Below are positions 14,961 to 35,207 of a DNA stretch of 64,000 nt, one piece after another. Every line of letters starts with the position of its first letter. Position 1 is the stretch's first letter. The notes below the pieces were generated by a model. That model was given only the letters and a program-made list of their open reading frames with translations. It was not told the origin of the DNA and searched no databases. The position numbers and the translations under genes are program-made. The DNA lies in the IMG/VR virus record IMGVR_UViG_2541047117_000001, positions 88,841 through 152,840 of that record. One strand, given 5' to 3'. This stretch comes from a virus (Duplodnaviria; Heunggongvirae; Uroviricota; Caudoviricetes).

Positions 14961-15114
14961 TTTTAAACATCCCCTTAATCCCTAAAATCATTTTTCATTT
15001 CCGTTTTGAGATTTGCCTAGTTAAAGACAAGTAATAAATTAATTATGCTTTCGGGTTTCTTGTTGTTTATCAGCTCCCGTTTGTTGATTACATGGATTAG
15101 TATACATTTCTAAT

Positions 15115-15133
15115 TATCCACTGTCAATGGATA
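15115..15133 (-). promoter_or_regulatory. -35-overlapping palindrome TATCCA-CTGTCAA-TGGATA; leftmost promoter at the divergence point
   Basis: One of 10 clear copies of this 19-bp element (see findings). Confidence 0.75.
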
Positions 15134-15296
15134 TATTATAATATTTTATATTACATTATATAATATTATATAATTCATTTTTGGTTTATGGATTCCAACG
15201 GAGTCCTATTATAGAAGAAACTAGATTCATAGAGCTAAAAGGTATGTAAAAGTATAGAGAATGATTTTCTTTTCGGGATTCTAAAATTGATTTTCT

Positions 15297-15338
15297 TTCT
15301 CGATTTCTTTTGTGATTTCTCGATTTCTTTTGTGATTT
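15297..15338. repeat. Tandem 20-nt repeat within a GATTT-rich tract
   Basis: CGATTTCTTTTGTGATTTCT repeated twice. Confidence 0.85.
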
Positions 15339-16173
15339 GTGGATTGTATAAAACGAAAATTATTTACAAGATGTGTTTTGATTCATGGATTTGCCGTGAA
15401 GAAGTGGGGGACAGGTCTAAAAATCATTTGAGTTTTGCTATTATTCTTGGAGACTCATTTTTGAATTTGGTTTTTGATTTCGGTTTCGGAAACTGATTTC
15501 GAAATTTCTTTTTGATTTCGCAATCTGAATTTGATTTCTGAGTTCAGAATCCGTTGCGAACTAATGGATTTTGATTTGCGGTTTCCATGCTATGTTGAGG
15601 TAAAATCACTCTTTTATACAATCATAGTGACTCCATACAGCTCGATAGGACATGACAGAATACGTCAACGACACGTCGCAAAACATCAACGTTTAGGGAG
15701 GCTTAGGGAGGCTTGTAAATGCTTCGCAACTAAGTGATTTTTACCTCAGCGATTCCATGTGTCTTCGCACCTGCACCGCAAACACACGCATATTTGATTC
15801 TCTCTATATTAATCTATTGATTTGATTTACATTCTAAGCGCTCTATATATAGTTATATACCATTCCATAGCTGATTCGCATGTCCTTGCATACGATATGC
15901 GCCATGCCTAGCCAAGACACTACACAAACGTCTATACATCACCATGTGTGTAACGTACACATGCGTCATTATGCATCACTTCGCATATGTATATTTCTAT
16001 TATTCTTTCTGTTTCTTCTATCAATCTACTTTACAATATTATATATCTTATAAAGTAGTATACTCTTATATAAAATAACCTTATAATATATTACATTATA
16101 TAATGCTATGTCTTATTATGTAATATATACATAGCTACTATAATGATATGTTATGTATGTGCCTATTATATAT

Positions 16174-16446
16174 TATATTGGTGGCAATATTTGAGCGCCT
16201 ATTACTTAATGTGATTTCATTTTAAACTGTAAAAATGGATGCCTAATGCACACTAAAAATATAGGTGTGTAACTCCTATAATAGATGCACAATACATAGT
16301 GTGCGCTAGCGTTAGTGCATATATGTGCCTGCGCCTATACTTGTGTGCATTGTGGTGCATATATTGGTGGGAATATATGAGTGTCTATTACTTAATGCGT
16401 TTTCATTGTAAATCATAGAAATGGATACGAACCGAGCGCCAAAAAT
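16174..16446. repeat. Imperfect direct repeat of about 87 bp, copies 16174-16260 and 16360-16446
   Basis: Both copies read TATATTGGTGG.AATAT.TGAG.G.CTATTACTTAATG....TTCATT.TAAA....AAATGGAT...AAAAAT. Confidence 0.85.
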
Positions 16447-16750
16447 GAACGAGCCGTACAGCCTGCCTATGTCGTCGCTTTGTCTATCATTCTTCCTGTT
16501 GTCTCCGTTCCGATTTTGTTTACTGGTTTTTTGTTATATTCATAGTCAGATAATTATAAATAGTTAGTACGCTGTTGGTCAAAATGCTCTTTAAATAGTA
16601 GTTTCGAGTTTCTTCTATATATATGCGTGATTGAAAACCGCAAACTAAAAATAATTTATGAAATCCATTGACAGTGGTTTCTTTTTCCTGTAGTATTAGG
16701 GACGTAGTAAACAAACGGAAAACAAGTGAAACAAATAATGAAATTAGTTG

Positions 16751-16783
16751 TTGACATATTGTTTTGTTATCATTTATAATAAC
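16751..16783 (+). promoter_or_regulatory. sigmaA promoter with 18-bp operator over -10
   Basis: TTGACA-18-TATAAT; GTTATCATTTATAATAAC at 16766-16783. Confidence 0.85.
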
Positions 16784-16812
16784 AACAGACACAACAAAGG
16801 AGATGTTTATAA

Positions 16813-17250
16813 ATGAAATTAGAAATTAAAGTAGTAGACGGTTTAGAAGTATGTGAAGAAAAGGTAGTATCATTATTGGAAGAACAAGATGTAAATGAAT
16901 CAAATGAAATTTTAGTAGTTGACGAAGAACAACGTTCTGCAATGGTCAAAGAAGAAATTTTACAATCTGTATGGGCTTTCAATCCTACTTTTGTTACTGA
17001 AAATTTAAAAGATGAAATTTGTGATGAGTTATCCTCATATGAATTGGAGCAATTAAGGGATAGTATTAAGGATATGCAAGAAAAAATGTGTGAAGGTTGT
17101 AACGTTGTAATTAAAAGTATGATTGATATTGACACATTTATAGAAAATGCAATTCATAGTGATGGACATGGGCATTTTCTCAACAAGGAAAACGGGGAAG
17201 AATACCAATTAGACTATAACGGAGAAATCTTATTCGCTTATTACAAATAA
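16813..17250 (+). CDS. Acidic hypothetical protein (early cassette)
   Basis: ORF track, RBS GGAG. Confidence 0.8.
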   Translation: MKLEIKVVDGLEVCEEKVVSLLEEQDVNESNEILVVDEEQRSAMVKEEILQSVWAFNPTFVTENLKDEICDELSSYELEQLRDSIKDMQEKMCEGCNVVIKSMIDIDTFIENAIHSDGHGHFLNKENGEEYQLDYNGEILFAYYK

Positions 17251-17254
17251 TGTA

Positions 17255-17287
17255 TTGACATATCAATTTGTTATCATTTATGATAAC
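17255..17287 (+). promoter_or_regulatory. sigmaA promoter with 18-bp operator
   Basis: TTGACA-18-TATGAT; GTTATCATTTATGATAAC at 17270-17287. Confidence 0.85.
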
Positions 17288-17317
17288 GAAAAACACAACA
17301 AAAGGAGATGTTTGAAA

Positions 17318-17599
17318 ATGTTAACTAAAATTACAAAATCACAAGTGAAATCTATCATTAAAAAGGAAGGTGCTTTCAAAGGCTTCCTATGTCCTTCTAA
17401 AAGCTTCCCAAACGTGGGACATCCTTTCAATGTGGCAATGCCTGTAGAATGGACACAAGACGACTTGAAACCCGTTGACGTGTTAGGGAACGAAAAGGAA
17501 GGCGAACCAACTAACATGGAGCGGAAAATAAATGAATTTTCTTATTATAATTGCTCTGCTGAGGTTGGAAAAAGTGTTCATTACTACATTGAAAAATAA
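17318..17599 (+). CDS. Hypothetical protein (early cassette)
   Basis: Start moved to MLTKIT after GGAGATGTTTGAAAATG. Confidence 0.8.
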   Translation: MLTKITKSQVKSIIKKEGAFKGFLCPSKSFPNVGHPFNVAMPVEWTQDDLKPVDVLGNEKEGEPTNMERKINEFSYYNCSAEVGKSVHYYIEK

Positions 17600-17703
17600 A
17601 TGAACAAATTTCATATAATCCATTGACAGTGGATTTGTTATTTGATAGAATTTTAAATGTAGTTGAGGGAAGTGCACCTTTTCTCAACTACAAAAAATAA
17701 GTA

Positions 17704-17736
17704 TTGACATAACTATTAGTTATCATTTATGATAAC
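17704..17736 (+). promoter_or_regulatory. sigmaA promoter with 18-bp operator
   Basis: TTGACA...GTTATCATTTATGATAAC (17719-17736). Confidence 0.85.
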
Positions 17737-17765
17737 TATAGGCACAACAGAGGAGATGTTTAAAA

Positions 17766-18053
17766 GTGGAACGTCAAATGGATTTAAGAGAAGTAAAGAA
17801 AAAGATTAATGAATCAAGAGTGAGTAAATTACAAGTCGAACTTTTCAATTGGAATGGAGACGAAGACGAAAGCGGTTTTGATTTGATGGTAAACCTTTTG
17901 GACAGTGATGGGGATTTAATTAAAGATATGGTTGTAATTGAATACAAGCAAGAGGAAGAAAAACAGGCACAAGCCGAAGCGAAAAAGATTCATAAAAAAT
18001 TATCCGAACATTATACTTGGATGGAAGTAAAATACACGGAGACACACGAATAG
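17766..18053 (+). CDS. Hypothetical protein
   Basis: GTG start after GAGGAGATGTTTAAAA. Confidence 0.8.
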   Translation: MERQMDLREVKKKINESRVSKLQVELFNWNGDEDESGFDLMVNLLDSDGDLIKDMVVIEYKQEEEKQAQAEAKKIHKKLSEHYTWMEVKYTETHE

Positions 18054-18066
18054 GAGGAAACCGAAA

Positions 18067-18393
18067 ATGATACAATTAAGAACTCAAGTGCATGTAATTA
18101 ACGACGAAAAATTTATTTACAAAATTTCACAGTTTCGTGAACTACAAAGTAGTGAACTAGGTTTTACATATGATTTGGATTTGGTGGCGGGATATGATTA
18201 TATAAATCCTGATGAAAACGACATACAAGGCTTTGTGAGCGCTGAGAACTTCACAGACGAGGTTCAAGGTGATATATTAACCGTTTACCCTCTGTCGGAG
18301 TCTTTAGGCGAGAGATTAGAAGAGTTAGGCTACAAAGTGATAGATATTACAAAGTACAAAATTCATAAATCAACTGTCGAAACTGGGGAATAA
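18067..18393 (+). CDS. Hypothetical protein
   Basis: RBS AGGAGG; its stop codon lies in the stem III loop of hammerhead 1. Confidence 0.8.
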   Translation: MIQLRTQVHVINDEKFIYKISQFRELQSSELGFTYDLDLVAGYDYINPDENDIQGFVSAENFTDEVQGDILTVYPLSESLGERLEELGYKVIDITKYKIHKSTVETGE

Positions 18394-18441
18394 TTCCCAG
18401 TCTGTGAAATAGTGGCTCTATTCATACTGATGAGACAAGCC
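18375..18441 (+). ncRNA. Type II hammerhead ribozyme 1
   Basis: TGTC-GAAA-stem III-GTC cleavage triplet-stem I (loop TGGCT)-CTGATGA-GACA; loop GGCT pairs with downstream AGCC. Confidence 0.9.
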
Positions 18442-18478
18442 GAAAAGAAAGTGATTTCACAAATGTAAAAAATAATGA

Positions 18479-18511
18479 TTGACATCTGCAATTGTTATCA
18501 TTTATAATAAC
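18479..18511 (+). promoter_or_regulatory. sigmaA promoter with 18-bp operator
   Basis: TTGACA-18-TATAAT; operator at 18494-18511. Confidence 0.85.
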
Positions 18512-18534
18512 TGTAGATTCAAAAAAATAAAAAG

Positions 18535-18891
18535 GTGGAAATTAAAATGAATTTAAACGAATTTAACAAAGTCGATTCTTTGAGAGTTAAAGAAACTGGG
18601 GAAATCATGAGCCACGAGGAATTTTACACAAATGTTGTAAATGGAATTGGTTTACAGAATTTAATTGGTTTACTACCTGCTACGAAAGAAGAAATTAAAT
18701 TATGTCTTGAAAGAGACGAAAGTTTAAATGGAATTAAATTGAAATACTGGGATGAACGAGCAACAGAATTAAAATTCTATATTGGTAGAATTGGCGTTAA
18801 AAGTATTTCATTGTCACAGGCGGTATGTGTGCTAAAACAAACGGCTCGAATGTATGCAAGAGACTTGGAACAATTGAGTTTTGAAATTTAA
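18535..18891 (+). CDS. Hypothetical protein
   Basis: ORF track; start may be the ATG at 18547. Confidence 0.8.
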   Translation: MEIKMNLNEFNKVDSLRVKETGEIMSHEEFYTNVVNGIGLQNLIGLLPATKEEIKLCLERDESLNGIKLKYWDERATELKFYIGRIGVKSISLSQAVCVLKQTARMYARDLEQLSFEI

Positions 18892-18914
18892 ATAACAGGT
18901 GTAAAAAATAATGA

Positions 18915-18947
18915 TTGACTTTTGAATTAGTTATCATTTATAATAAC
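18915..18947 (+). promoter_or_regulatory. sigmaA promoter with 18-bp operator
   Basis: TTGACT-18-TATAAT; operator at 18930-18947. Confidence 0.85.
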
Positions 18948-18985
18948 ATTAGGTAAAAAAACAACTATTATACAGAAAAGAGGAA

Positions 18986-19309
18986 ATGAAAATGATAGTA
19001 GCACATTTAATTGGCGGAAATGCAATCAAAGGGATTATAGACGGGACTGTAATTATCAACGGTGAACAATTGGAAACTAGTTACGGAGAGTTAGCGTCTG
19101 TATGTGGAAGTATTTCGCTTGGTGATTTGGATACAACTAGAAGTGCGGAGAGAATGGAAAGGGATTATATAGAACTGGTTAGGGAACATGATGAAGATTT
19201 AGACGAGGATTTTGTTCTTGACAATCATTTAACGGCTGAGATTTGTTATAGCGAATATGAAATTGATATAGAGAAAAAAACGCTAACACTAACCATCGGT
19301 ACGTATTAA
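18986..19309 (+). CDS. Acidic hypothetical protein
   Basis: ORF track, RBS GAGG. Confidence 0.8.
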   Translation: MKMIVAHLIGGNAIKGIIDGTVIINGEQLETSYGELASVCGSISLGDLDTTRSAERMERDYIELVREHDEDLDEDFVLDNHLTAEICYSEYEIDIEKKTLTLTIGTY

Positions 19310-19331
19310 TAATAAGTGTAAAAAATAATTA

Positions 19332-19364
19332 TTGACAAAAATATATGTTATCATTTATAATAAC
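19332..19364 (+). promoter_or_regulatory. sigmaA promoter with 18-bp operator
   Basis: TTGACA-18-TATAAT; operator at 19347-19364. Confidence 0.85.
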
Positions 19365-19390
19365 ATTAGGTTGATGAAAGGAGAATAAAA

Positions 19391-19633
19391 ATGGTAATTG
19401 AATTTAAAGAAGCCGTGGAAATGCTAGAAGATGGAATGGAGGTTGTTCTTGAGTGTGACGGTCATGATTATGAAATTTCCGATGCTGAAAATTGGATTGG
19501 TGGCGATGCTCATGATGGATACATAAGCCTTGTTTTGGGAAGCGTGGTCTATGGAAGTGCGGAAACCGCTCTGAGGGAATCTATCGACTTTCTAGAAAAA
19601 AGTGGAAAAAGTGTTACAATTAAAGATTCATAA
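19391..19633 (+). CDS. Acidic hypothetical protein
   Basis: ORF track, RBS AAAGGAG. Confidence 0.8.
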   Translation: MVIEFKEAVEMLEDGMEVVLECDGHDYEISDAENWIGGDAHDGYISLVLGSVVYGSAETALRESIDFLEKSGKSVTIKDS

Positions 19634-19671
19634 CAAATGAAATAATTCTTTTAACAAATGGAGGTAGGGAA

Positions 19672-19887
19672 ATGACTTTCAAAGAGCAAATTGTAGAATG
19701 GAAAAAAATTGTAGGAAATGAAATTCGTAAAAATAAAGATATAATCAATAATTGGGGATTGGATGGAAAAGTATTTTTTCAACTTGATGGAACTGTGATT
19801 GTAAGAAATGAATATTCAACAGAGGATATAATTTTCGAAAATACAATAACACCATTTAAAGAATGGAAAGAGAAAAAGTGTATTTAA
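19672..19887 (+). CDS. Hypothetical protein
   Basis: ORF track, RBS GGAGG. Confidence 0.8.
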   Translation: MTFKEQIVEWKKIVGNEIRKNKDIINNWGLDGKVFFQLDGTVIVRNEYSTEDIIFENTITPFKEWKEKKCI

Positions 19888-19897
19888 ATTTTAAATA

Positions 19898-20205
19898 CAA
19901 ATGTAAAAAATAATGAAATTAACTATTGATTTCTTGTAGTTTGTATGCTCCGTTCATGAATTCGTTATCTAATATGATAACACATAACAAGAGGTAAAAG
20001 CCCATACAAGGCAAAATAAGGCGTCTGATGGCTATGTGTAATGGTTCGAAGTGATAACAAAGTGAAAATTATATGAAAATCAAAAATAATAAACTATTTT
20101 CACATAATGCATTGACAGTGGACTATATTTTTAGTAAAATATTAAATGTAAGGTAGTTGAATAAACGCCTTACAAAAATCTAAAGGAAAAAGGTGTTTAA
20201 AAATG
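19898..20205 (+). repeat. Intergenic regulatory cassette, copy A
   Basis: Collinear with 21102-21388. Confidence 0.75.
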
Positions 20206-20349
20206 AATGAAGATTTTTTCGGGAATTTACTTATTTTATCAGGATTGTTCGCTCCACTTATTACAGTAGGATTAGTTGAAATAATTAGAAATAAAATAAG
20301 AACTGGTGAATTTTTCCCGATTGATACAAGTGAAAAAAATAATGATTGA
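20203..20349 (+). CDS. Small single-TM protein (48 aa)
   Basis: Not in track. MNEDFFGNLLILSGLFAPLITVGLVEIIRNK... after AGGTGTTTAAAAATG. Confidence 0.7.
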   Translation: MNEDFFGNLLILSGLFAPLITVGLVEIIRNKIRTGEFFPIDTSEKNND

Positions 20350-20378
20350 CATATACATTTGTTATCATTTATAATAAC
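20346..20378 (+). promoter_or_regulatory. sigmaA promoter with 18-bp operator
   Basis: TTGACA-18-TATAAT; operator at 20361-20378. Confidence 0.85.
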
Positions 20379-20403
20379 AAATGTAGGGAAGACGTTCCCA
20401 CAA

Positions 20404-20469
20404 GTCGAAACGGGACTTTCGAGTCCCGTCCATGTAAAGTGGTTCTTTACATGCTGATGAGACAAACCA
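20404..20469 (+). ncRNA. Type II hammerhead ribozyme 2
   Basis: GTC-GAAA-CGGGACT(TTCG)AGTCCCG-TC-CATGTAAAG(TGGTT)CTTTACATG-CTGATGA-GAC; loop TGGTT pairs with AACCA. Confidence 0.93.
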
Positions 20470-20499
20470 AAAATAACTTATAGAATAGGATGTTTAAAA

Positions 20500-21117
20500 A
20501 TGACAGACAATTTAACAGTAGCAATCGAAAAACCAGTTTTAAGAAATGAATTTATTCTAATCAAAGATGATATCACAGGCGAACAAAAAGGCGGAAACGC
20601 TTATAACCTTGATAACAAATGTCGTGTAGTACTTTTTGAAACTTCTTTCCGTGCAATTGCGATTGTAGACGAAACAAAGAAAGATGGAATTTATTCTTTC
20701 GTTACAAAATATGTAAATAATAATATTTTCAGTAACATGGTAATAAACGTCCTAATTAATGGAAAGATTTACAAGCGCAAAATTATCAAATTTGAAAACC
20801 GTTTAGCGGTTCGACATAACAATGAAATTTTCGAACTTGGAGAATTTGCAAATGGATTGTATCAAGTGAGAGAGCAATTAACAAGTAACAAATTAGATGT
20901 GGTTTGGACTTTACAAAAGATAGTCGATGTCAGAATGTACCACATGAGCAAATTGTCATTGATGGATAAAAATTTAGTAATGATTCACTTTAGTAATATT
21001 CAGACATCTTACAAAAAGAACAAAGCTGAATTTTCTGAAATTGATAATATTTCTTGTGAGTGTTTAGCGGAGTGGATTGACCACGCCAAAGAAACACTTT
21101 ACAAATGTAAAAAATAA
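20500..21117 (+). CDS. Hypothetical protein
   Basis: ORF track, GGATGTTTAAAAATG start. Confidence 0.8.
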   Translation: MTDNLTVAIEKPVLRNEFILIKDDITGEQKGGNAYNLDNKCRVVLFETSFRAIAIVDETKKDGIYSFVTKYVNNNIFSNMVINVLINGKIYKRKIIKFENRLAVRHNNEIFELGEFANGLYQVREQLTSNKLDVVWTLQKIVDVRMYHMSKLSLMDKNLVMIHFSNIQTSYKKNKAEFSEIDNISCECLAEWIDHAKETLYKCKK

Positions 21118-21388
21118 TGAAAATTGCTCTTGATTTCCTGTAGGATGTATGCTTTTTGTTCTAGAGTGTTATCTAATGTGATTACACGTAGAAGGACAAA
21201 AAGCCCATACAAGGGAATCTGAGTCTTCTCACGTATATATAAATGATAACAAAGTGAAATTGAAATGAATTTAAAAAGATTCACAAAGTGCATTGACAGT
21301 GGATTGATAATTTGATAAGATATTAAATGTAAGGTAGTTGAGACGAACAACACTTACAAATAACAAAAAATGGAGATGTTTAAAAATG
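21102..21388 (+). repeat. Intergenic regulatory cassette, copy B
   Basis: Collinear with 19898-20205. Confidence 0.75.
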
Positions 21389-21487
21389 TTGAGAATTAGA
21401 AAAGTTGAAATGAAAATGGTAATCGTAACAATGGAAGAGGTTATCTTCATCCATTACAAAAAGGTTCAAATTGTTTATTGTTTCTAA
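21386..21487 (+). CDS. Small peptide (33 aa)
   Basis: Not in track. MLRIRKVEMKMVIVTMEEVIFIHYKKVQIVYCF after GGAGATGTTTAAAAATG. Confidence 0.55.
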   Translation: MLRIRKVEMKMVIVTMEEVIFIHYKKVQIVYCF

Positions 21488-21544
21488 AAATATTACAAGT
21501 GTAAAAAATAATGAAATTAAAATTAAAACTAAAACTAAAAATGA

Positions 21545-22126
21545 ATGGAGCAAATTAAAATGAAAAAGTTTATCAAAAAAATGGTTGGAATTGGAATTAT
21601 CGGAGCGGTTTTAGGATTAGGTTTTCTTGCAATGGATTTAGAAATTATTGGTAACGCAAAAGCAGAAGAAAATACGGTTGCACGTTCTACTCATGATTCA
21701 AATAAGGATTTCATTTTCATGCAAGAATTTAAATACAACGGAGAAAGAACAGAAGACGGATATTACAAACTGGATAACATTCATGATAACACTGACTTTG
21801 TTTATGCGAACGCTGAGGAAATGGATTATCATATTCCGATGGTTGGACAAAACGTAACAGTACAATTTAATCATGATGATATTGAAATTGTATATGTTCA
21901 AAACAAAGAAACAATTCAGAATACTTTCATTGTAACGGATGCAAAAGAAAAGGGAATCGAGAATTTTGATAATGAAAAATATATCTTCTTAGTAAATGAA
22001 TTTAATCCGAACGACACTTTTGTTTTAGAAAATGATGGAAGTTACAAGCAAGGCGAAAAGGTAAACGTTGCAACAAGTATCATAAGCGCAACTGATGAAA
22101 TAATAGATGTTCAAAAAGTCAAGTAA
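21545..22126 (+). CDS. Exported or membrane-anchored protein
   Basis: MKKFIKKMVGIGIIGAVLGLGFLA signal/anchor; two similar beta-rich halves. Confidence 0.75.
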   Translation: MEQIKMKKFIKKMVGIGIIGAVLGLGFLAMDLEIIGNAKAEENTVARSTHDSNKDFIFMQEFKYNGERTEDGYYKLDNIHDNTDFVYANAEEMDYHIPMVGQNVTVQFNHDDIEIVYVQNKETIQNTFIVTDAKEKGIENFDNEKYIFLVNEFNPNDTFVLENDGSYKQGEKVNVATSIISATDEIIDVQKVK

Positions 22127-22197
22127 TTTAAACGGAAAATAAAAAGTGAAAACTGGGACTCTCACGAGTCCCGACCAACTAAAAGGAGAATTGAAAA

Positions 22198-22329
22198 ATG
22201 ATTTCTAGAATTAAAAGATTGATAACCAATTATAAAATTAATCGTAAAATCAGCCAAACGAAAAAGCAAATTGATTTCCTTGATGGATTGGAAAAGAACT
22301 GTATAGCAAAGAATTACATAAAGTTATAA
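22198..22329 (+). CDS. Small basic peptide (43 aa)
   Basis: Not in track. RBS AAAGGAG; MISRIKRLITNYKINRKISQ... Confidence 0.6.
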   Translation: MISRIKRLITNYKINRKISQTKKQIDFLDGLEKNCIAKNYIKL

Positions 22330-22407
22330 ATCATTCTTGATTTATGAAATATCTGATAATTAAAAAGTAGGAAAATAAACAGATGGAAATAAAAGGAGAC
22401 AAACAAC

Positions 22408-22818
22408 ATGACAACAATCACAACAACATCACAAGCAATCAAGGCAGTGACAGACGCACTAGAAGGACATGACAACATCACTTTAGCCAAGTTGGAAGCC
22501 GATGGTATAGAAGTAAGTGAAAGAACGTTATACAAGGTGTTAGACGTGTTAAAAGATAATAGGTTATTTAATGCAGTGAAAGGAACGGCATATTTAACGA
22601 ACGGGTTTACAGTAGTGTATGAAGAGAAGGGTTTCAAGTATTGCAGAATGGAGCAAATAGTATTTATCGGGAACAATCACAATATAGTGTTGAAAGACCA
22701 ACCAAGAATAAAGGTTTATATATCCTCTGCTATGTGGGTAGATGTTTCCATATCATACAGTGACAGAACATTCATTAACATGTGTCTGACACCACACGAG
22801 CGATTAACAAGAGAATAA
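22408..22818 (+). CDS. Hypothetical protein, possible N-terminal wHTH
   Basis: ORF track, RBS AAAGGAG. Confidence 0.75.
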   Translation: MTTITTTSQAIKAVTDALEGHDNITLAKLEADGIEVSERTLYKVLDVLKDNRLFNAVKGTAYLTNGFTVVYEEKGFKYCRMEQIVFIGNNHNIVLKDQPRIKVYISSAMWVDVSISYSDRTFINMCLTPHERLTRE

Positions 22819-23049
22819 GAGGAATCGGAAAGGGATAGTGATATAGATGTCACTGTCTCTTTTGCTATGCATGTAGATAGATTGAATGAGAGAGAGAATA
22901 ACAACCGAGATAATGGAAGGGAATAGAGTTAGACTGTTGCCTCTTATCTATCGTTGTTGTATTGATGCATCCCCATATAAGCCCATCATATAAACCCACT
23001 GTATAACCTACCCTATTACCCATATAGAAACCAACAGGAGAACCATACC

Positions 23050-23330
23050 ACATGACCACATCATAACACCACATGTATAACACTACATGTACATGACACA
23101 CACACACACACACCAAGACGACCACACCAACACATGACAGCGTGACGCACACACGCACACACACCACACGCACAAGCAAGCGAGCCAACAGCACAAGGCA
23201 CGACACGACAAGAGAGAGTGACAGACACAAGAGACATGACAAGACACATACACATAACAGGTGAGACGAGCCAACCCAACCGAGGCAAGGCAGAGCCGAC
23301 CAACCCAACCATGCACACGACACGTATAAT
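23050..23330. repeat. T-depleted CA/AG-rich low-complexity tract
   Basis: 8 T in 224 nt (23101-23324), (CA)n runs, CCAACCCAACC twice. Confidence 0.9.
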
Positions 23331-24320
23331 TGTAGTGATGGTATTATGTGGTAAATTTCAAGCGGTTTCGCTATTCCCTATGGGCAATTCTGAGAGAGTT
23401 AGCAAGGTGGTAGTACGTGAAATGAAAGATAATCGCCTCAGAGAGCGCCACAGGGAGTGGTGTTTGGTGGCAAATTTGGTTGATATAGTGTTCGACGGAT
23501 AGACATATGTTATAGTGCAACCGATAACCGACACGGAACGGCAACCCGTGGCGAATCTCAAACCCAACCGCAAACCGTGGCAAATTCGCTTGCCATCTCG
23601 TGGCGAATCCGCACGAAGCCGAGCCGAGCCGACGAGCCGACGACCACGGAGACGAGCGACGCCAACAAGTGCAACCGAGCCGAACCACGACACCCATAAA
23701 GGCAAGTGTCCCACAAGTAAAGTTATAGGACGGGGATAGTTTACAATCTCGAACCGCCACCAACAATAGAACAGCCACGCAACTGTACATCACCTAGACC
23801 CACTTTTCTGTGGGGACTCGATGTCAGCCAACTTTGTTGCATTTCCTATTACTTTGTCCGATTTTACCCTATATTTAGATGCTATCGAAACGCTATCGCT
23901 AAACCACTTATTTTCCTATTATTTTGCTCTCAACTCAAACCTCGATTTTGTCCGATAACCAACCGATTCAAATCTATCAATCTTATAATCCATAAATAAA
24001 AACGATGACTCCTTAAATTTTCCCTTATTTTAGGATTCATCGTTAGCTAAATTCCGTATTCAATTCTATCATTTTGGCTTACATTTTATTTCTCAGCTCT
24101 CACAGGCATTAATTTCGAATCTATTAATCTTTGATTCCCTTCAATTTTGGCTTCAACTGTTAGCCAACTCGATAACCAAATCGTTAATAATCTTATAGTT
24201 TCATTTTATTAATTTCGCAAACTCAAAAATTTCCCCGATTAGCTGATTCAATTATCCGTAGATACAGCAATGCCCCACGCCTAAATCGACGAGGGGTGGG
24301 GGTGCGATAAACAATTTCCG

Positions 24321-24977
24321 TTACTGCATCAACGCTTCTGCGATGCACGTATCCTTATCTAGCTCAAAATTATTTGGCTTCAACTGCTCAGGTTCGGTAG
24401 CCCAGTAGCCTCTAAACATAACGGGCATTCTGCGACTCCCATCTAACTTTGGCTGTGGCTTGATAATTGCATCAATCTGAACCTCACGAGCTATTCTTCT
24501 CAACGGCTGATTGGTTGACTTCGACAAATCTAAAGCTCTATTGTCGGTTTGTACATCCAACGAATCAGGCTTCTTGAAATGCATCGGACTAAGACGTATG
24601 AATTTCAATGCAACAGCACTTCTGACACTGTTCTGGAAGTGATACAGCTTAATTACTAGTTGCTTATGTTCGTTGAATAACAGTTCCATTGAATCAATAG
24701 TAGTGATATTGAACACAGACTCGCCGATTCGTAGAAATATGCCACCTTCTACTCCTGTGGCTTTGAAGAATGTATCCTCATATAAAGAACCGTTATTCTC
24801 CATTTGAGCCTTGCATTGTAGCTTATGCATTTTACTCAGGATTCCAACGAATATTAGGCTAGCAAGTTCACTAAACTCGTGGAATGTTAGCGAAGTGTCC
24901 GTTACTTGCAACATGTCGATTCCTAATTCTTCGTGTAAATGCACTGATTTACCAGTGTCTCGTTTTATGTATTTCAT
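24321..24977 (-). CDS. Hypothetical protein
   Basis: ORF track, RBS GAAAGGA. Confidence 0.75.
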   Translation of the reverse strand: MKYIKRDTGKSVHLHEELGIDMLQVTDTSLTFHEFSELASLIFVGILSKMHKLQCKAQMENNGSLYEDTFFKATGVEGGIFLRIGESVFNITTIDSMELLFNEHKQLVIKLYHFQNSVRSAVALKFIRLSPMHFKKPDSLDVQTDNRALDLSKSTNQPLRRIAREVQIDAIIKPQPKLDGSRRMPVMFRGYWATEPEQLKPNNFELDKDTCIAEALMQ

Positions 24978-25114
24978 AGTGTAATATCCTTTCTAACGAC
25001 GCAATGTATTGCAATAACATTATATCATTAATTTTTATATTAATAAATATTGACATTCATTATTTTTTACATTAGTATAAAAGTACAAAATGTTAACCTA
25101 TTACAACGAGAGGA

Positions 25115-26891: not shown

Positions 26892-27956
26892 TTAATTTTG
26901 CTCTGTTGCCTCAAAAGTCTGCATTAACTTTGTTTGCACATCACGACCGCTACTCATGATTAACTTAATTAATTCGTCCTTATCTAAACTCTCTAATGGT
27001 GATAAATCAACTTGCTCACCAATTTGTAGACATGGCATCTGAGATAAGTCTTTACTCTGTTCCATATAGAATTTAAGAGGCGTCAATTCAGAAGAGTGAT
27101 TACCTTGACGTTGAATCTCTTTGATGTCTCCGCCAGTAATAACATTTACCTCATACATTCCACACTTCTTAAAGCTATGGAACGTTAAGTTCTTATCGAC
27201 GATACCCAATTCCTTTTTAAGTTTATCCATCATTCTTGTTACAGCTCTAGCGTATAGATTTGCAGGGAATACTCTATCAGAATCAGACTGTTTCTTTAAC
27301 TCCATAAAACGCTCAAAAAGTTCATTTTTTATAGGTTTTTCGTCCCATTTTTGTCCTTTTCCTAGTACTTTTACGCATTTAACACCATTTTTCTCACCGA
27401 AGGAATCCCACGTCATTTCAAGCATAGAATCCAATCTGTAGCTTGTTACAACTGCTAATTCGATTAGTAGAGACTTCATTTCTCCATCCTTATGTCCTTT
27501 AACGGCATTGATGAATTGCTCTGCAACCTCCCAAGTGATAACTGAGTAGCTATCAGAGTCGAACTCAGTTAGATTATCAATGTCAAACCATGCACGTTTA
27601 ACAGGATAGTCATTAGACATTAGGTATTTATATAAACTTCTTACAGCATCAATCTTGCCGTTAATCGTTTTGTTCTTATACTTTCTTACTTTACCTTCAT
27701 CGTCCTTCATTACTTTAGTTAAAGCGATTTGATAGTTCTGTACTTCTTCGAATGTGAATACTAAATCAGTCATTACAAGTTCATCTAACTTCTTACCTCT
27801 TGTATCTTCAAAGAACTGACCAATAGACTTAGTGTATGTAGTCTTCGTGTTCGTACTCTTTAAGCCTTTACCTTCTAAGAATGTCTCGATTGAGTTAGTG
27901 ATACGTTCGTTCTCTGATTTAAGTCCTGTGTGTAATTCTAATACTGTTGCTGTCAT
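26892..27956 (-). CDS. Tyrosine recombinase/integrase family protein 1
   Basis: SYRLDS, GKGQK, FHSFKK, GNH, KFY catalytic positions. Confidence 0.85.
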   Translation of the reverse strand: MTATVLELHTGLKSENERITNSIETFLEGKGLKSTNTKTTYTKSIGQFFEDTRGKKLDELVMTDLVFTFEEVQNYQIALTKVMKDDEGKVRKYKNKTINGKIDAVRSLYKYLMSNDYPVKRAWFDIDNLTEFDSDSYSVITWEVAEQFINAVKGHKDGEMKSLLIELAVVTSYRLDSMLEMTWDSFGEKNGVKCVKVLGKGQKWDEKPIKNELFERFMELKKQSDSDRVFPANLYARAVTRMMDKLKKELGIVDKNLTFHSFKKCGMYEVNVITGGDIKEIQRQGNHSSELTPLKFYMEQSKDLSQMPCLQIGEQVDLSPLESLDKDELIKLIMSSGRDVQTKLMQTFEATEQN

Positions 27957-32059: not shown

Positions 32060-32132
32060 GCACCTATAGCTCCAATGGTAGAGCAGAGAGCTGTTAACTC
32101 TTTGGTTGGTGGTTCGAGTCCATCTAGGTGCG
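32060..32132 (+). tRNA. trnN: tRNA-Asn(GTT)
   Basis: Cloverleaf; GAGAG-CTGTTAA-CTCTT. Confidence 0.93.
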
Positions 32133-32174
32133 TCATTGTTTTTAAAGAGAAAAGAGAAAAAGGGGATAGGGATT

Positions 32175-32417
32175 ATGTTTAATAAAGATGTACACGGTAA
32201 AAGAATCAGAAAAGCTCAAGCTAAAACGCAATCCGCTCAAGAGGTATTTGTAAAAGCGATTGAAGATATTGATGCGTCTGATGAGCATTTAGATGAAGTA
32301 ATCAAAGAAGCTCAAGCTGAAATTACTAATCTACAATCCTTTGTAGAAGATGCAAAAACAAGTAAAGCTGAGAATGATGTTTTAAGAAAGAATATTCAAG
32401 GCTTAGTTAGTATTTAA
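32175..32417 (+). CDS. Small coiled-coil protein inside the tRNA island
   Basis: Start moved to MFNKD after AGGGA. Confidence 0.75.
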   Translation: MFNKDVHGKRIRKAQAKTQSAQEVFVKAIEDIDASDEHLDEVIKEAQAEITNLQSFVEDAKTSKAENDVLRKNIQGLVSI

Positions 32418-32446
32418 TATTTCGCATCCTTAGTGGATGCTTTTAT

Positions 32447-32521
32447 GGTGTATTAGTGTAGCGGTTAACACGCTAGCCTGTCACGCTAGTAGCACGGGTT
32501 CGATTCCCGTATACACCGCCA
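32447..32521 (+). tRNA. trnD: tRNA-Asp(GTC)
   Basis: Cloverleaf, encoded CCA. Confidence 0.95.
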
Positions 32522-32524
32522 TTA

Positions 32525-32600
32525 TTTCCGAGTAGACGAACTGGTAAAGTCACTAGTCTTTGAAGCTAGAGTTTGGAGGTTCGAAGCCTTCCTTGGAAAT
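32525..32600 (+). tRNA. trnQ: tRNA-Gln(TTG)
   Basis: CTAGT-CTTTGAA-GCTAG. Confidence 0.85.
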
Positions 32601-32610
32601 CGACCAAAGT

Positions 32611-32687
32611 CCATGCTTTGGAAACTAGATATTAGTTTAGTTTAGTTTAGTTTAGTCTAGTATTAGTATCTAGTTTCCAGTGTGTGG
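32611..32687 (+). promoter_or_regulatory. UAG-repeat hairpin overlapping the 5' end of tRNA-His
   Basis: 13-bp perfect arms at 32619-32631 and 32667-32679; (TTTAG)4 interior; 9 TAG triplets. Confidence 0.7.
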
Positions 32688-32748
32688 CGTAATGGTAACG
32701 CAGTGGACTGTGAATCCATGAATGAGAGTTCGATTCTCTCCATGCTGA
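32678..32748 (+). tRNA. trnH: tRNA-His(GTG), non-canonical identity (C-1, A73)
   Basis: GTGGA-CTGTGAA-TCCAT; acceptor stem CAGTGTG/CATGCTG. Confidence 0.85.
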
Positions 32749-32749
32749 T

Positions 32750-32878
32750 TGTTGGTGAGCAACATAAAAACTCAATACACATTCTAGACGTAGGAGCTAG
32801 ACGTTGACAAGCAACATAAAAACTTGAATGATGTGGACGCAGGGGAGTAGCGCCACGTAAAAAACATAACAGCTCCTT
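32750..32878 (+). ncRNA. Three tandem H-type pseudoknots (PK1-3)
   Basis: Manual pairing; compensatory stem-2 change between PK1 and PK2. Confidence 0.65.
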
Positions 32879-32881
32879 TAA

Positions 32882-32955
32882 GCCGACTTAGCTCAGCAGG
32901 TTAGAGCGGTTGCCTTGTAAGCAACAGGTCGTGGGTTCGATTCCTACAGTCGGCA
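32882..32955 (+). tRNA. trnT: tRNA-Thr(TGT)
   Basis: GTTGC-CTTGTAA-GCAAC. Confidence 0.95.
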
Positions 32956-32957
32956 TT

Positions 32958-33044
32958 GACGTTTTTACCGAGTCCACGTCGTTAATCTACGATTCGGTAC
33001 GCAAAGCGGTAGGTTCTGCTTGACCTATGATATCAAAACAAGCA
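32958..33044 (+). ncRNA. Two tandem H-type pseudoknots (PK4-5)
   Basis: GACGT/ACGTC + TACCGAGT/ATTCGGTA; GTAGGT/ACCTAT + TGCTTG/CAAGCA. Confidence 0.7.
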
Positions 33045-33052
33045 TCCATTAT

Positions 33053-33202
<150 letters not shown>

Positions 33203-33210
33203 TCATTTAT

Positions 33211-33284
33211 GAGGAGATGGTGAAGAGGCTTAACACGGTAGGTTGCAACCCTATTATTCGTGGGTTCAAATCCCACTCTTCTCT
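33211..33284 (+). tRNA. trnC: tRNA-Cys(GCA)
   Basis: GTAGG-TTGCAAC-CCTAT; U73. Confidence 0.92.
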
Positions 33285-33298
33285 TAGTTTTGTAGCAT

Positions 33299-33370
33299 GT
33301 GGTATTGGTCTAATGGCTATGATTTCTGACTTCCAATCAGAAGATGAGAGTTCGATTCTCTCATACCACA
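33299..33370 (+). tRNA. trnG: tRNA-Gly(TCC)
   Basis: TCTGA-CTTCCAA-TCAGA. Confidence 0.9.
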
Positions 33371-33379
33371 TCATTTTTT

Positions 33380-33453
33380 ACCCCTATCGCCAAGTGGATT
33401 AAGGCAACGGGCTTCTATCCCGTTATTCGGGAGTTCGAATCTCTCTAGGGGTG
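33380..33453 (+). tRNA. trnR: tRNA-Arg(TCT)
   Basis: ACGGG-CTTCTAT-CCCGT. Confidence 0.92.
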
Positions 33454-33578
33454 TTAGAACTTAATCAGTTTCTTTCTAATGGAAGGCATGGGTCATGCCC
33501 TAATCCAAATATTCCATGTGAAAGTTTTATCTTCGAAAGGCGTTCGAATAAAAAACCAAATGAACCTTTAAGCAATAT

Positions 33579-33663
33579 GGCAGGGTAGTCTAGTGGCAAT
33601 GACAGGAGACTGTAAATCTCCCCTCAATCGAGTTCGTAGGTTCGAGTCCTACCCCTGCCACCA
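33579..33663 (+). tRNA. trnY: tRNA-Tyr(GTA)
   Basis: Long variable arm, CCA. Confidence 0.95.
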
Positions 33664-33666
33664 TAT

Positions 33667-33737
33667 GGAGTTTTAGTTTAACTGGCAAAACACTTGGCGT
33701 AGTCAAGGCGTAATCGGTTCGAGTCCGATAAACTCCT
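33667..33737 (+). pseudogene. Aberrant tRNA with a 5-nt anticodon loop (CGTAG)
   Basis: Intact acceptor, D and T arms; stem CTTGG/TCAAG closes only 5 nt. Confidence 0.7.
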
Positions 33738-33750
33738 CCCTCCCTTCAAT

Positions 33751-33822
33751 GCATCCTTAGTTTAAAGTGAAAACGGACTGCTTAAAAGCCGTTGTATGTG
33801 GGTTCGAACCCCACAGGGTGCA
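33751..33822 (+). pseudogene. Aberrant tRNA with an irregular anticodon arm
   Basis: GCATCCT/AGGGTGC acceptor, TTCGAAC T-loop, no canonical 5-bp/7-nt anticodon arm. Confidence 0.65.
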
Positions 33823-33827
33823 TCTTT

Positions 33828-34640
33828 ACTTCGAGGTTTGGCTCTGATAGCGTAACGTGAGTTGCGTAAAGGCAATGTGACAAGTTGCCACCGTGTAAAC
33901 GGTCAATCCAAGCACAATCGACACTCCTAAGTCATCATTATGATGGTGATAGTTTCATGAAATTACGGAGAAAACGCTACGAGGTCAACGATGTAGTAGC
34001 AGTATTGGTTAGCACCAATACACTCCACGCTAAGGTAATGAAGAAGCGAGAGTGAATCGAGAGATTGTACAGTCCGAGTTTAACAAGCAAGGGCGACAAT
34101 CAGTAATGAAAGAGAAATGGTCGAAAGCCAAAGTAACTTTGATTACGGTTTGAGTAGCTAGTTGGCGAAAGAACATGAAGGCGTGTGGTATTTTGTAATC
34201 CAAAAGATTACGAAGCCACTGAGACAGCACGTCTTCTGTCACACAGACTAATAAGATGTTAGATATGGTAATCCAAAGAGATGATTAAAATATGACTAAT
34301 TAAAATTCATACATACAAGCGAAAGCCTGTCTCCTTACATTACGAAGGCAACCTAAATCCCCACAAGAAGTTGAATGGGGAGCATGATGAGTTCGCAAAA
34401 CTCTGATTGTTTGATAGTGAATTGCATGGTTCTCTTAGCAGAGATTAATAGCGTGGCAACGTTGACAGAATCGGAACTATTGAGTAGTAGTGTAACAGGT
34501 CGCAGAATGCACAGCGACTAATTAAAACGTGCGGTTGTGAGTGATACGTAGTTGCTCCAAAAGAGGATTACGTGGATAAGAGAGGAAGATATAATCTTTC
34601 TAAAGGCACTCAATGCGAGGTTTAATCTCAGCCTACGCAA
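33828..34640 (+). ncRNA. GOLLD-like giant structured RNA (about 810 nt)
   Basis: No credible ORF, dense GNRA-capped stems, lies in a tRNA cluster. Motifs GAGTAGC...GAAAGAACATGA...TGTGGTATTTTG...CAAAAG...CCACTG and 3' TAATCTCAGCCTA match GOLLD as I recall it. Boundaries approximate. Confidence 0.7.
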
Positions 34641-34676
34641 GACCAGTTCTGTTTTTACGGGATTGGATTTTATCTT

Positions 34677-34765
34677 GGAGAGGTACTCAAGTGGCTCAAG
34701 AGGCTTCCCTGCTAAGGAAGTAGGACGCATTGTGCGTTGCGTGGGTTCGAATCCCACCCTCTCCA
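34677..34765 (+). tRNA. trnS: tRNA-Ser(GCT)
   Basis: CTTCC-CTGCTAA-GGAAG, long variable arm. Confidence 0.93.
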
Positions 34766-34769
34766 TTAA

Positions 34770-35125
34770 AGGTGGACTAAGCCTACAAATTAGTCAGGTG
34801 CAAAGGCAACTGCATCATTCCCGAATGGGGGACGATTAAAAATACCATTATCTATCCCGATAAGAGATTGTCTTATCTGATTGCTATCATCGCAGTCACC
34901 GTTGAAGATATCACAACGGTAGACATTGGAAAGTCGCTCTGTTTCTCATATTGAAGGCAAGTGTGGGAGCGATAGAGTTCGTTGACGATGGTTTATGCGA
35001 ACATTATAGACAACTAAATATGAAAAAGTGCAACCTCACATGAGTTTCTTGCACTTCTTATGTGAGTTTTTTCAAATGTATGTAGGTTTCTACCCTAAGC
35101 GTTCCTACTAAATATAAACGGTAAG
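34770..35125 (+). ncRNA. Candidate structured non-coding RNA(s)
   Basis: About 10 consecutive hairpins or pseudoknot-like pairings; no ORF. Confidence 0.45.
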
Positions 35126-35132
35126 GTGACAT

Positions 35133-35207
35133 GCGCCTTTAGTGTAATTGGCAACACAGAAGTCTCCAAAACTTCTATTCTAGGTTCGAGTCCTAGAGGG
35201 CGTGCCA
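35133..35207 (+). tRNA. trnW: tRNA-Trp(CCA)
   Basis: GAAGT-CTCCAAA-ACTTC, encoded CCA. Confidence 0.95.

Follow-up and report, generated by a model that had tools for sequence, protein, structure and literature searches.

According to Weinberg et al. 2019 (PMC6765202), the function of bacterial ribozymes, including the hammerheads of bacteria and phages, is largely elusive. A hammerhead ribozyme that lies in the leader of a small phage gene, just downstream of what looks like the gene's own promoter, raises this question for a single transcript: what would the gene gain from an RNA that cuts its own message? We addressed it for a locus in a viral genome of IMG/VR. The window, i.e. the whole stretch of DNA that was analysed, is 64,000 nt long and comprises bases 88,841-152,840 of a 152,852-bp virus record with direct terminal repeats and a G+C content of 36%. 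It contains two hammerheads, here called ribozyme 1 and ribozyme 2; the second is the main subject of this study.

Architecture of ribozyme 2 and its sister element

At 20404-20469, the plus strand carries every sequence and structural feature by which type II pseudoknotted hammerheads are defined. This identification is confirmed at the level of sequence and predicted fold, and self-cleavage itself is predicted. The elements of the locus are listed below; bit scores refer to the covariance model R1, which is based on an alignment (A1) of 88 distinct IMG/VR copies, with the present phage and its close relative excluded.

20346..20375, plus strand: sigma-A-type promoter, TTGACA (20346-51), 18-nt spacer, TATAAT (20370-75); 12/12 consensus match
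20354..20385, no strand assigned: operator-like inverted repeat over the -10 box, 15-nt arms 2 nt apart, 93% complementary
20386..20399, plus strand: leader hairpin GGGAA/GACG/UUCCC, close to where the primary transcript is predicted to begin; present in both the MFE and the centroid structure
20404-20469, plus strand: ribozyme 2, a complete type II hammerhead with its pseudoknot tail, 66 nt, all core bases present; R1 75.5 bits
20404-06, plus strand: stem II 3' strand GUC, read from the sequence
20407-09, plus strand: G12A13A14 of the core, read from the sequence
20410..20429, plus strand: stem III, 8 bp including A15.1:U16.1 (strands 20410-17 and 20422-29); predicted -12.1 kcal/mol
20418-21, plus strand: stem III loop UUCG, read from the sequence
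20430, plus strand: C17, with cleavage predicted between 20430 and 20431 from its position within the conserved core
20431..20453, plus strand: stem I hairpin, perfect 9 bp (strands 20431-39 and 20445-53); predicted -8.6 kcal/mol, z -5.5
20440-44, plus strand: loop I UGGUU, read from the sequence
20454-60, plus strand: core CUGAUGA (C3-U4-G5-A6-N7-G8-A9), read from the sequence
20461-63, plus strand: stem II 5' strand GAC, 3 bp with GUC at 20404-06, read from the sequence
20464, plus strand: linker A, read from the sequence
20465-20469, plus strand: pseudoknot tail AACCA, complementary to all five bases of loop I, read from the sequence and supported by covariation
20500..21117, plus strand: downstream gene, 205 aa, from the ORF list
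18376-18442, plus strand: type II hammerhead ribozyme 1, cleavage predicted after 18402; R1 63.5 bits, E 4.8e-14

[quoted passage not shown] The pair A15.1:U16.1 is made by A 20410 and U 20429, and the residue that follows at position 17 is not a G (C17, 20430). The core is flanked by the Watson-Crick pairs C 20431:G 20453 (N1.1:N2.1) and G 20461:C 20406 (N10.1:N11.1). Loop I can form 5 bp with the nucleotides that follow stem II on its 3' side, where at least 4 bp are expected of the class; fast cleavage was shown to depend on pseudoknots of this kind (Perreault et al. 2011; PMC3088659). Stems I and III of ribozyme 2 appear in the MFE fold as well as in the centroid fold and face no strong competing structure, and no aptamer-like extra domain, ligand or switch is apparent at ribozyme 2.

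A preliminary description of this DNA had proposed a type II hammerhead with a 9-bp stem I and a UUCG-capped stem III, which our reading of the sequence bears out base for base, and a UGGUU/AACCA pseudoknot that covaries with ribozyme 1, where the strands are indeed UGGCU/AGCCG (C:G in place of U:A). Its cleavage site after 20430, leaving a 5'-OH mRNA for gene 20500..21117, agrees with the site predicted here from the position within the core. The operator-controlled promoter that it placed upstream is recognisable as a perfect TTGACA-18-TATAAT with the 15-nt inverted repeat, to which a repressor presumably binds, and the leader does have a hairpin of its own at 20386-20399. Transcription is predicted from the promoter at 20346-20375 to start near 20382; given this start, the released leader would measure about 48 nt (45-50). 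The likely ribosome-binding site of the gene is AGGA at 20487-90, and its start codon lies 30 nt past the pseudoknot tail.

Ribozyme 1 has the layout of ribozyme 2 with different stem sequences. The two are co-oriented and 2,028 nt apart, with a block of small genes between them. The stop codon of ORF 18067..18393 sits within the stem III loop of ribozyme 1, and the predicted cut falls 9 nt past this codon. Whereas ribozyme 2 has its promoter upstream, the 12/12 promoter next to ribozyme 1 (18479-18508) lies downstream, and none precedes it. The 5' strand of stem I of ribozyme 1 (18403-18410) is perfectly complementary to 18453-18460, just 3' of the ribozyme, and the MFE fold favours this 8-bp helix over stem I. 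The helix could compete with folding of ribozyme 1 or cap its cleaved 5' end; the segment 18403-18460 is identical in the relative L205 and hence gives no covariation signal for it.

Conservation, host and the viral family

Ribozyme 2 is found upstream of the same gene in four to five related records, one of which is a contig of a Bacillus cereus assembly. Its sequence is identical in four related records and differs in L219. There, loop I reads UGACU and the tail AGUCA, which amounts to two doubly compensatory pseudoknot pairs, and the leader hairpin GGGAA/UUCCC has become GAGAA/UUCUC, a compensatory change from G:C to A:U. Six out of six substitutions at paired positions in L219 (two pseudoknot pairs, one leader-hairpin pair) are compensatory. 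A protein-coding reading of 20404-20469, as offered by the mechanical ORFs 20346..20483 (plus strand) and 20142..20465 (minus strand), was ruled out, because the region falls between the gene calls of the relatives and its substitutions are compensatory at the RNA level. In the Bacillus cereus relative (L217), the two arms of the inverted repeat at 20354-20385 have changed symmetrically, the pattern one would expect of an operator to which a protein binds; binding of a repressor at this site is plausible.

A block of 1189 nt can be compared with the IMG/VR relative L205, from which it is 14% diverged. The longest identical run in this block, 108 nt (20369-20476), covers the -10 box together with the leader hairpin and all of ribozyme 2. 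Furthermore, whole promoter-gene cassettes have been gained or lost between the two genomes, with indels at 18053-18351 and 19646-20081; both segments are small-gene cassettes present here and absent from L205. The cassette at 18053-18351 ends 24 nt before ribozyme 1, so ORF 18067..18393 reaches its stop codon within the shared ribozyme sequence.

A Bacillus host, as suggested in the preliminary description, is supported: the sole named homolog of the downstream protein comes from the Bacillus cereus assembly, where it is annotated as a hypothetical protein on a contig of 153,205 bp. The large terminase is about 50% identical to those of Brevibacillus phage Sundance and of the Tsamsa group of Bacillus phages, and an SPbeta YonF-like similarity is seen as well. 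The cultured distant relatives Sundance, Tsamsa and KoopaTroopa contain no match to R1, and cultured phages gave no match either by megablast with 19800-21200 or by tblastn with the downstream protein. These data are best explained by a temperate-type siphophage of about 153 kb that belongs to the Bacillus cereus group. On the minus strand, 26892-27956 is an ORF of the integrase family (phrog_1, E 2e-16), and the Bacillus cereus relative of this integrase-bearing phage appears as a separate 153-kb contig.

The match is far from what chance would produce. When both strands of the 152,852-bp genome were searched with a loose type II descriptor (the core, with a minimum of 4 bp in stems I and III and of 2 bp in stem II), the matches genome-wide were ribozymes 1 and 2 only, compared with a mean of 0.06 in 200 shuffled genomes. 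R1 scores ribozyme 2 with 75.5 bits (E 4.6e-17) and finds nothing significant besides the two ribozymes in the window and in the whole genome. By pattern search, at least 120 stretches of IMG/VR contain type II hammerheads, and 97 contain the exact subtype, defined by a stem I of 9 bp with the 5-nt loop UGGYU, a stem II of 3 bp, a single linker A and the tail ARCC. The same subtype pattern yields three matches in 185,579 species genomes, all of them metagenome-assembled genomes. The subtype is almost confined to viral contigs. Half of the contigs that carry the family have a G+C content above 53%.

Alignment A1 supports the predicted helices. Its paired cells are compatible with pairing in 94.7% of cases, compared with 71% in shuffles and 33-44% when the partners are slid. 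Both sides change at 14 of 23 pairs, and none of 500 shuffles reached the observed covariation score. Covariation is seen at all nine pairs of stem I and at four of the six scored pairs of stem III, the other two and stem II, which never varies in A1, being fixed by the search pattern. C17 is present in 88 of 88 sequences, as a base that the pattern likewise fixes. The one pseudoknot pair that the pattern leaves open (Y with R) is C:G in 63 copies and U:A in 25, with no mismatch. Taken over these 88 sequences, the three-helix arrangement has the support of covariation.

The Rfam model for this class, RF02276 (gathering threshold 37 bits), is an operational model and does not define the class. 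It reports neither ribozyme 1 nor ribozyme 2, even at E <= 10, whether the query is the window, a slice of 171 nt or the full genome. It does report the relatives L047 and L192, at 39-43 bits; the identical copy in L205 escapes it as well, and so do A+U-rich members in L189, L147 and L180. Because these further copies are missed too, the result looks like a sensitivity gap and not like evidence against ribozyme 2. Masking was considered as a cause and dropped: the L205 copy and the A+U-rich members are missed, and L047 and L192 are reported. Since the model overlooks A+U-rich members of the family, the hammerheads of Firmicute phages are probably under-annotated. One unrelated IMG/VR contig with a subtype hammerhead (L180:3489-6813) also carries three pistol ribozymes above threshold within 3.5 kb, and below threshold a type III hammerhead and RAGATH-1-hammerhead-like matches; it illustrates the known co-occurrence of self-cleaving classes in phages.

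Out of 215 distinct viral type II hammerheads, 171 are followed within 40 nt by a Shine-Dalgarno (SD) sequence and a start codon that begins an ORF of 50 aa or more, with a median spacing of 21 nt from the pseudoknot tail; the same test succeeds at 68 of 645 random positions and at 2 of 215 sites on the antisense strand. On the other side, the median distance from the upstream stop codon to the ribozyme is 1 nt. Since a stop codon and an SD sequence with start codon flank the ribozyme so closely in this set, the family is a co-oriented, tightly packed intercistronic element, and in some clusters it precedes most genes. A promoter match of at least 10/12 within 90 nt upstream occurs in 1 of 210 viral copies and one of at least 11/12 in none, with the reservation that other hosts may use other promoter types. 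The promoter-proximal position of ribozyme 2 is unusual for the family, and given the adjacent consensus promoter, the family-wide intercistronic logic may not be fully transferable to it.

The early region and the proposed role of cleavage

The region from 16.7 to 22 kb is a series of small plus-strand ORFs of unknown function. No match to the 205-aa protein of gene 20500..21117 was found in Pfam and PHROG, and only four homologs exist in 5.8 billion clusters, one from Bacillus cereus. For ten neighbouring ORFs, the same two databases returned only families of unknown function. Among the plus-strand promoters, four are perfect TTGACA-18-TATAAT and five are 11/12 matches. Seven promoters (16751-20385) have GTTATCATT-TATAAT-AAC in common, a palindrome over the -10 box. 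In a second promoter type the palindrome surrounds the -35 box, and the leaders open with hairpins about 7 nt after the -10 box; inverted repeats at 17658-17692, 20147-20174 and 21323-21363 are the predicted 5'-terminal hairpins of such leaders. The leader hairpin at 20386-20399 is similar, which suggests that hairpin-capped 5' ends may be a theme of the early region. A crude scan for plus-strand terminator-like sites returned one in 15000-25000 and none in 15000-24900. Read-through is expected because this single site is set against nine plus-strand promoters of 11/12 or 12/12. Farther downstream, a full-length GOLLD RNA (204.6 bits, 34176-34634) lies inside an array of 16 tRNA genes (32060-35204).

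Our analysis covers sequence, fold, conservation and covariation, from which we infer that the RNA is cut, how fast this happens and what it does to stability or expression. On this basis we consider it probable that ribozyme 2 is a functional type II hammerhead which processes transcripts constitutively, serving as punctuation and as 5'-end insulation of gene 20500..21117. Constitutive processing is the most likely mode because the 215 viral hammerheads occupy the space from a stop codon to the ribosome-binding site that follows. It also fits the proposal of Perreault et al. 2011 (PMC3088659) that hammerheads process long phage transcripts into gene-length mRNAs.

In this model, every RNA that crosses ribozyme 2 would be cut co-transcriptionally after C17 (20430). 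The substrates would be transcripts from the promoter at 20346-20375 as well as read-through transcripts from the many early promoters upstream, and the cut would sever the gene from all upstream sequence. Hammerhead cleavage leaves a 2',3'-cyclic phosphate on the upstream product and a 5'-OH on the downstream one. Here the upstream product would end with the 8-bp UUCG stem III hairpin and its cyclic phosphate, and in its promoter-proximal version it would comprise about 48 nt and two hairpins. The mRNA on the other side of the cut would begin with a constant 5'-OH end, flush with the 9-bp stem I hairpin and about 57 nt before the ribosome-binding site. After the cut, the products would be joined by the 3-bp stem II alone; owing to the type II permutation, both would keep a closed hairpin at the new end. 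The gene would thereby receive one defined 5' end whatever promoter made the RNA. Protection or normalisation of the mRNA seems to us more likely than its marking for decay.

The opposite fate is implied by the preliminary description, which took 5'-OH products of glmS to be RNase J1 substrates in Bacillus and suggested that cleavage could set a short expression pulse. Spelled out, RNase J1 would attack the exposed 5'-OH, the mRNA of gene 20500..21117 would be short-lived, and expression would be confined to a brief pulse for as long as the promoter is open. Degradation by RNase J1 of the 5'-OH RNA that glmS self-cleavage produces is documented (PMC3997798), and the host belongs to the Bacillus cereus group; the early-type region with operator-like control is one where quick shut-off would make sense, and the kinase-HD protein of the phage (see below) could even turn the 5'-OH into a 5'-P, the preferred substrate of RNase J1. 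At the predicted new 5' end, however, the very first nucleotide is already paired, as part of a 9-bp hairpin that is also able to form the pseudoknot, and Bacillus mRNAs are stabilised by hairpins located at the 5' end or close to it (PMC3997798). The occurrence of the family before most genes of some clusters, and in contigs of which half exceed 53% G+C, argues against Bacillus-specific decay as its general logic, and no ligand or switch points to regulated cleavage. The decay pulse appears unlikely to us, and with regard to mRNA stability we lean towards protection and insulation, the RNase J1 decay of the glmS product pointing the other way. It is less probable again that the useful product lies upstream, be it hairpin-protected 3' ends for early mRNAs or the ~48-nt leader as a stable small RNA. 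The leader fragment is predicted to form two hairpins (-20.3 kcal/mol, z -3.0), the first of which carries the compensatory change in L219; 15000-24900 is without plus-strand terminator-like sites, and the predicted cut of ribozyme 1 lies 9 nt beyond a stop codon. Against this stand the crudeness of the terminator scan, the lack of any known target or partner for the leader RNA and the tight family-wide spacing to the downstream ribosome-binding site, which marks the downstream mRNA as the constrained side.

Cleavage could also be conditional, with folding gated by the leader hairpin, by the read-through context or by ribosomes, such that the fraction cut tunes expression. Allosteric control via the pseudoknots was raised by Perreault et al. 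(PMC3088659), and at ribozyme 1 there is both a competing 8-bp helix (18403-10/18453-60), preferred in the MFE fold, and a stop codon in the stem III loop. Ribozyme 2 differs in these respects: its MFE and centroid folds both have stems I and III and no strong competitor, an aptamer-like extra domain is absent, and the start codon lies 30 nt beyond the pseudoknot. We therefore rate gating of ribozyme 2 as highly improbable. As for an inactive relic or a functionless chance match, for which one might cite the silence of the Rfam model, the R1 E-value of 5e-17, the 0.06 chance matches in shuffled genomes, the perfect core, the compensatory changes and the 108-nt conserved island across relatives leave it next to no credence. 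The preferred reading is still constitutive processing with insulation of the downstream gene.

Outside the window, the genome encodes RNA repair enzymes (L223:793-2926 and L221:1177-2043, both on the minus strand). A kinase (AAA_33) and HD-domain protein adjoins a T4 Rnl1-type RNA ligase, and a separate Rnl2-type RNA ligase is encoded elsewhere in the genome; RtcB is absent from the phage genome. The substrates of the kinase-HD protein and ligases are 5'-OH and 2',3'-cyclic-phosphate ends, such as hammerheads make, and the enzymes probably serve tRNA repair. There is a slim chance that the two ribozymes excise a 2,028-nt RNA (18403-20430, with five small early genes) whose termini would be a 5'-OH and a 2',3'-cyclic phosphate, and that the phage enzymes re-phosphorylate, re-join or circularise the cut mRNAs. 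If this were true, ribozyme cleavage would be more than a simple cut: early gene control would include a step that is reversible or coupled to enzymes.

Otherwise, ribozyme 2 is unremarkable for its kind; the class, its pseudoknot and its clustering around phage genes have all been on record since 2011 (PMC3088659). The promoter-proximal leader position, the conserved leader hairpin, the culturable Bacillus host and the Rfam miss are modest additions. They make for a simple and tractable case, with two ribozymes only, a culturable host group and well-studied decay enzymes (RNase J1/J2, RNase Y and RppH), and the leader position of ribozyme 2 means that its effect on a single gene can be isolated.

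Comparison with known self-cleaving and stabilising RNAs

With the type II hammerheads of Perreault et al. 2011 and RF02276, ribozyme 2 shares the permutation and the invariant core; in both, stem II is short and loop I pairs with the tail in a pseudoknot. It differs in its A+U-rich stems, in the negative result with RF02276 and in its occurrence in a phage of the Bacillus cereus group. As in the clustered prophage hammerheads (Perreault et al. 2011, Figure 3), a co-oriented pair brackets a block of small genes, and neighbouring genes vary between relatives. In contrast to those clusters, both ribozymes here adjoin a perfect consensus promoter, a situation that is rare among the 210 viral copies. 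Because its promoter adjoins it upstream, ribozyme 2 would trim a promoter-proximal 5' leader in addition to cutting read-through transcripts.

The glmS ribozyme (Collins et al. 2007, as reviewed in PMC3997798) is likewise a self-cleaving RNA of a 5' leader in a Bacillus-type host that yields a 5'-OH coding fragment. Its fold is different, it depends on a ligand and it controls one metabolic gene, whereas ribozyme 2 is without a sensor domain and is predicted to leave a flush terminal hairpin. The likeness is one of mechanism only and not of family membership, and the outcome may be the opposite. Stabilisers of the aprE-leader type (PMC3997798) present the arrangement predicted for the cleaved mRNA, i.e. 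a hairpin-capped 5' end followed by the ribosome-binding site. These natural 5' stabilisers carry a 5'-PPP or 5'-P from transcription or RNases, compared with the 5'-OH predicted for ribozyme 2. To our knowledge, a stabiliser or insulator function has been demonstrated for no natural phage hammerhead. A synthetic counterpart is the RiboJ insulator, which was reportedly engineered from a satellite-RNA hammerhead by Lou et al. in 2012. The likeness between the two lies in the 5' end after cleavage, which at ribozyme 2 would be independent of the promoter, defined, capped by a hairpin and then followed by the ribosome-binding site.
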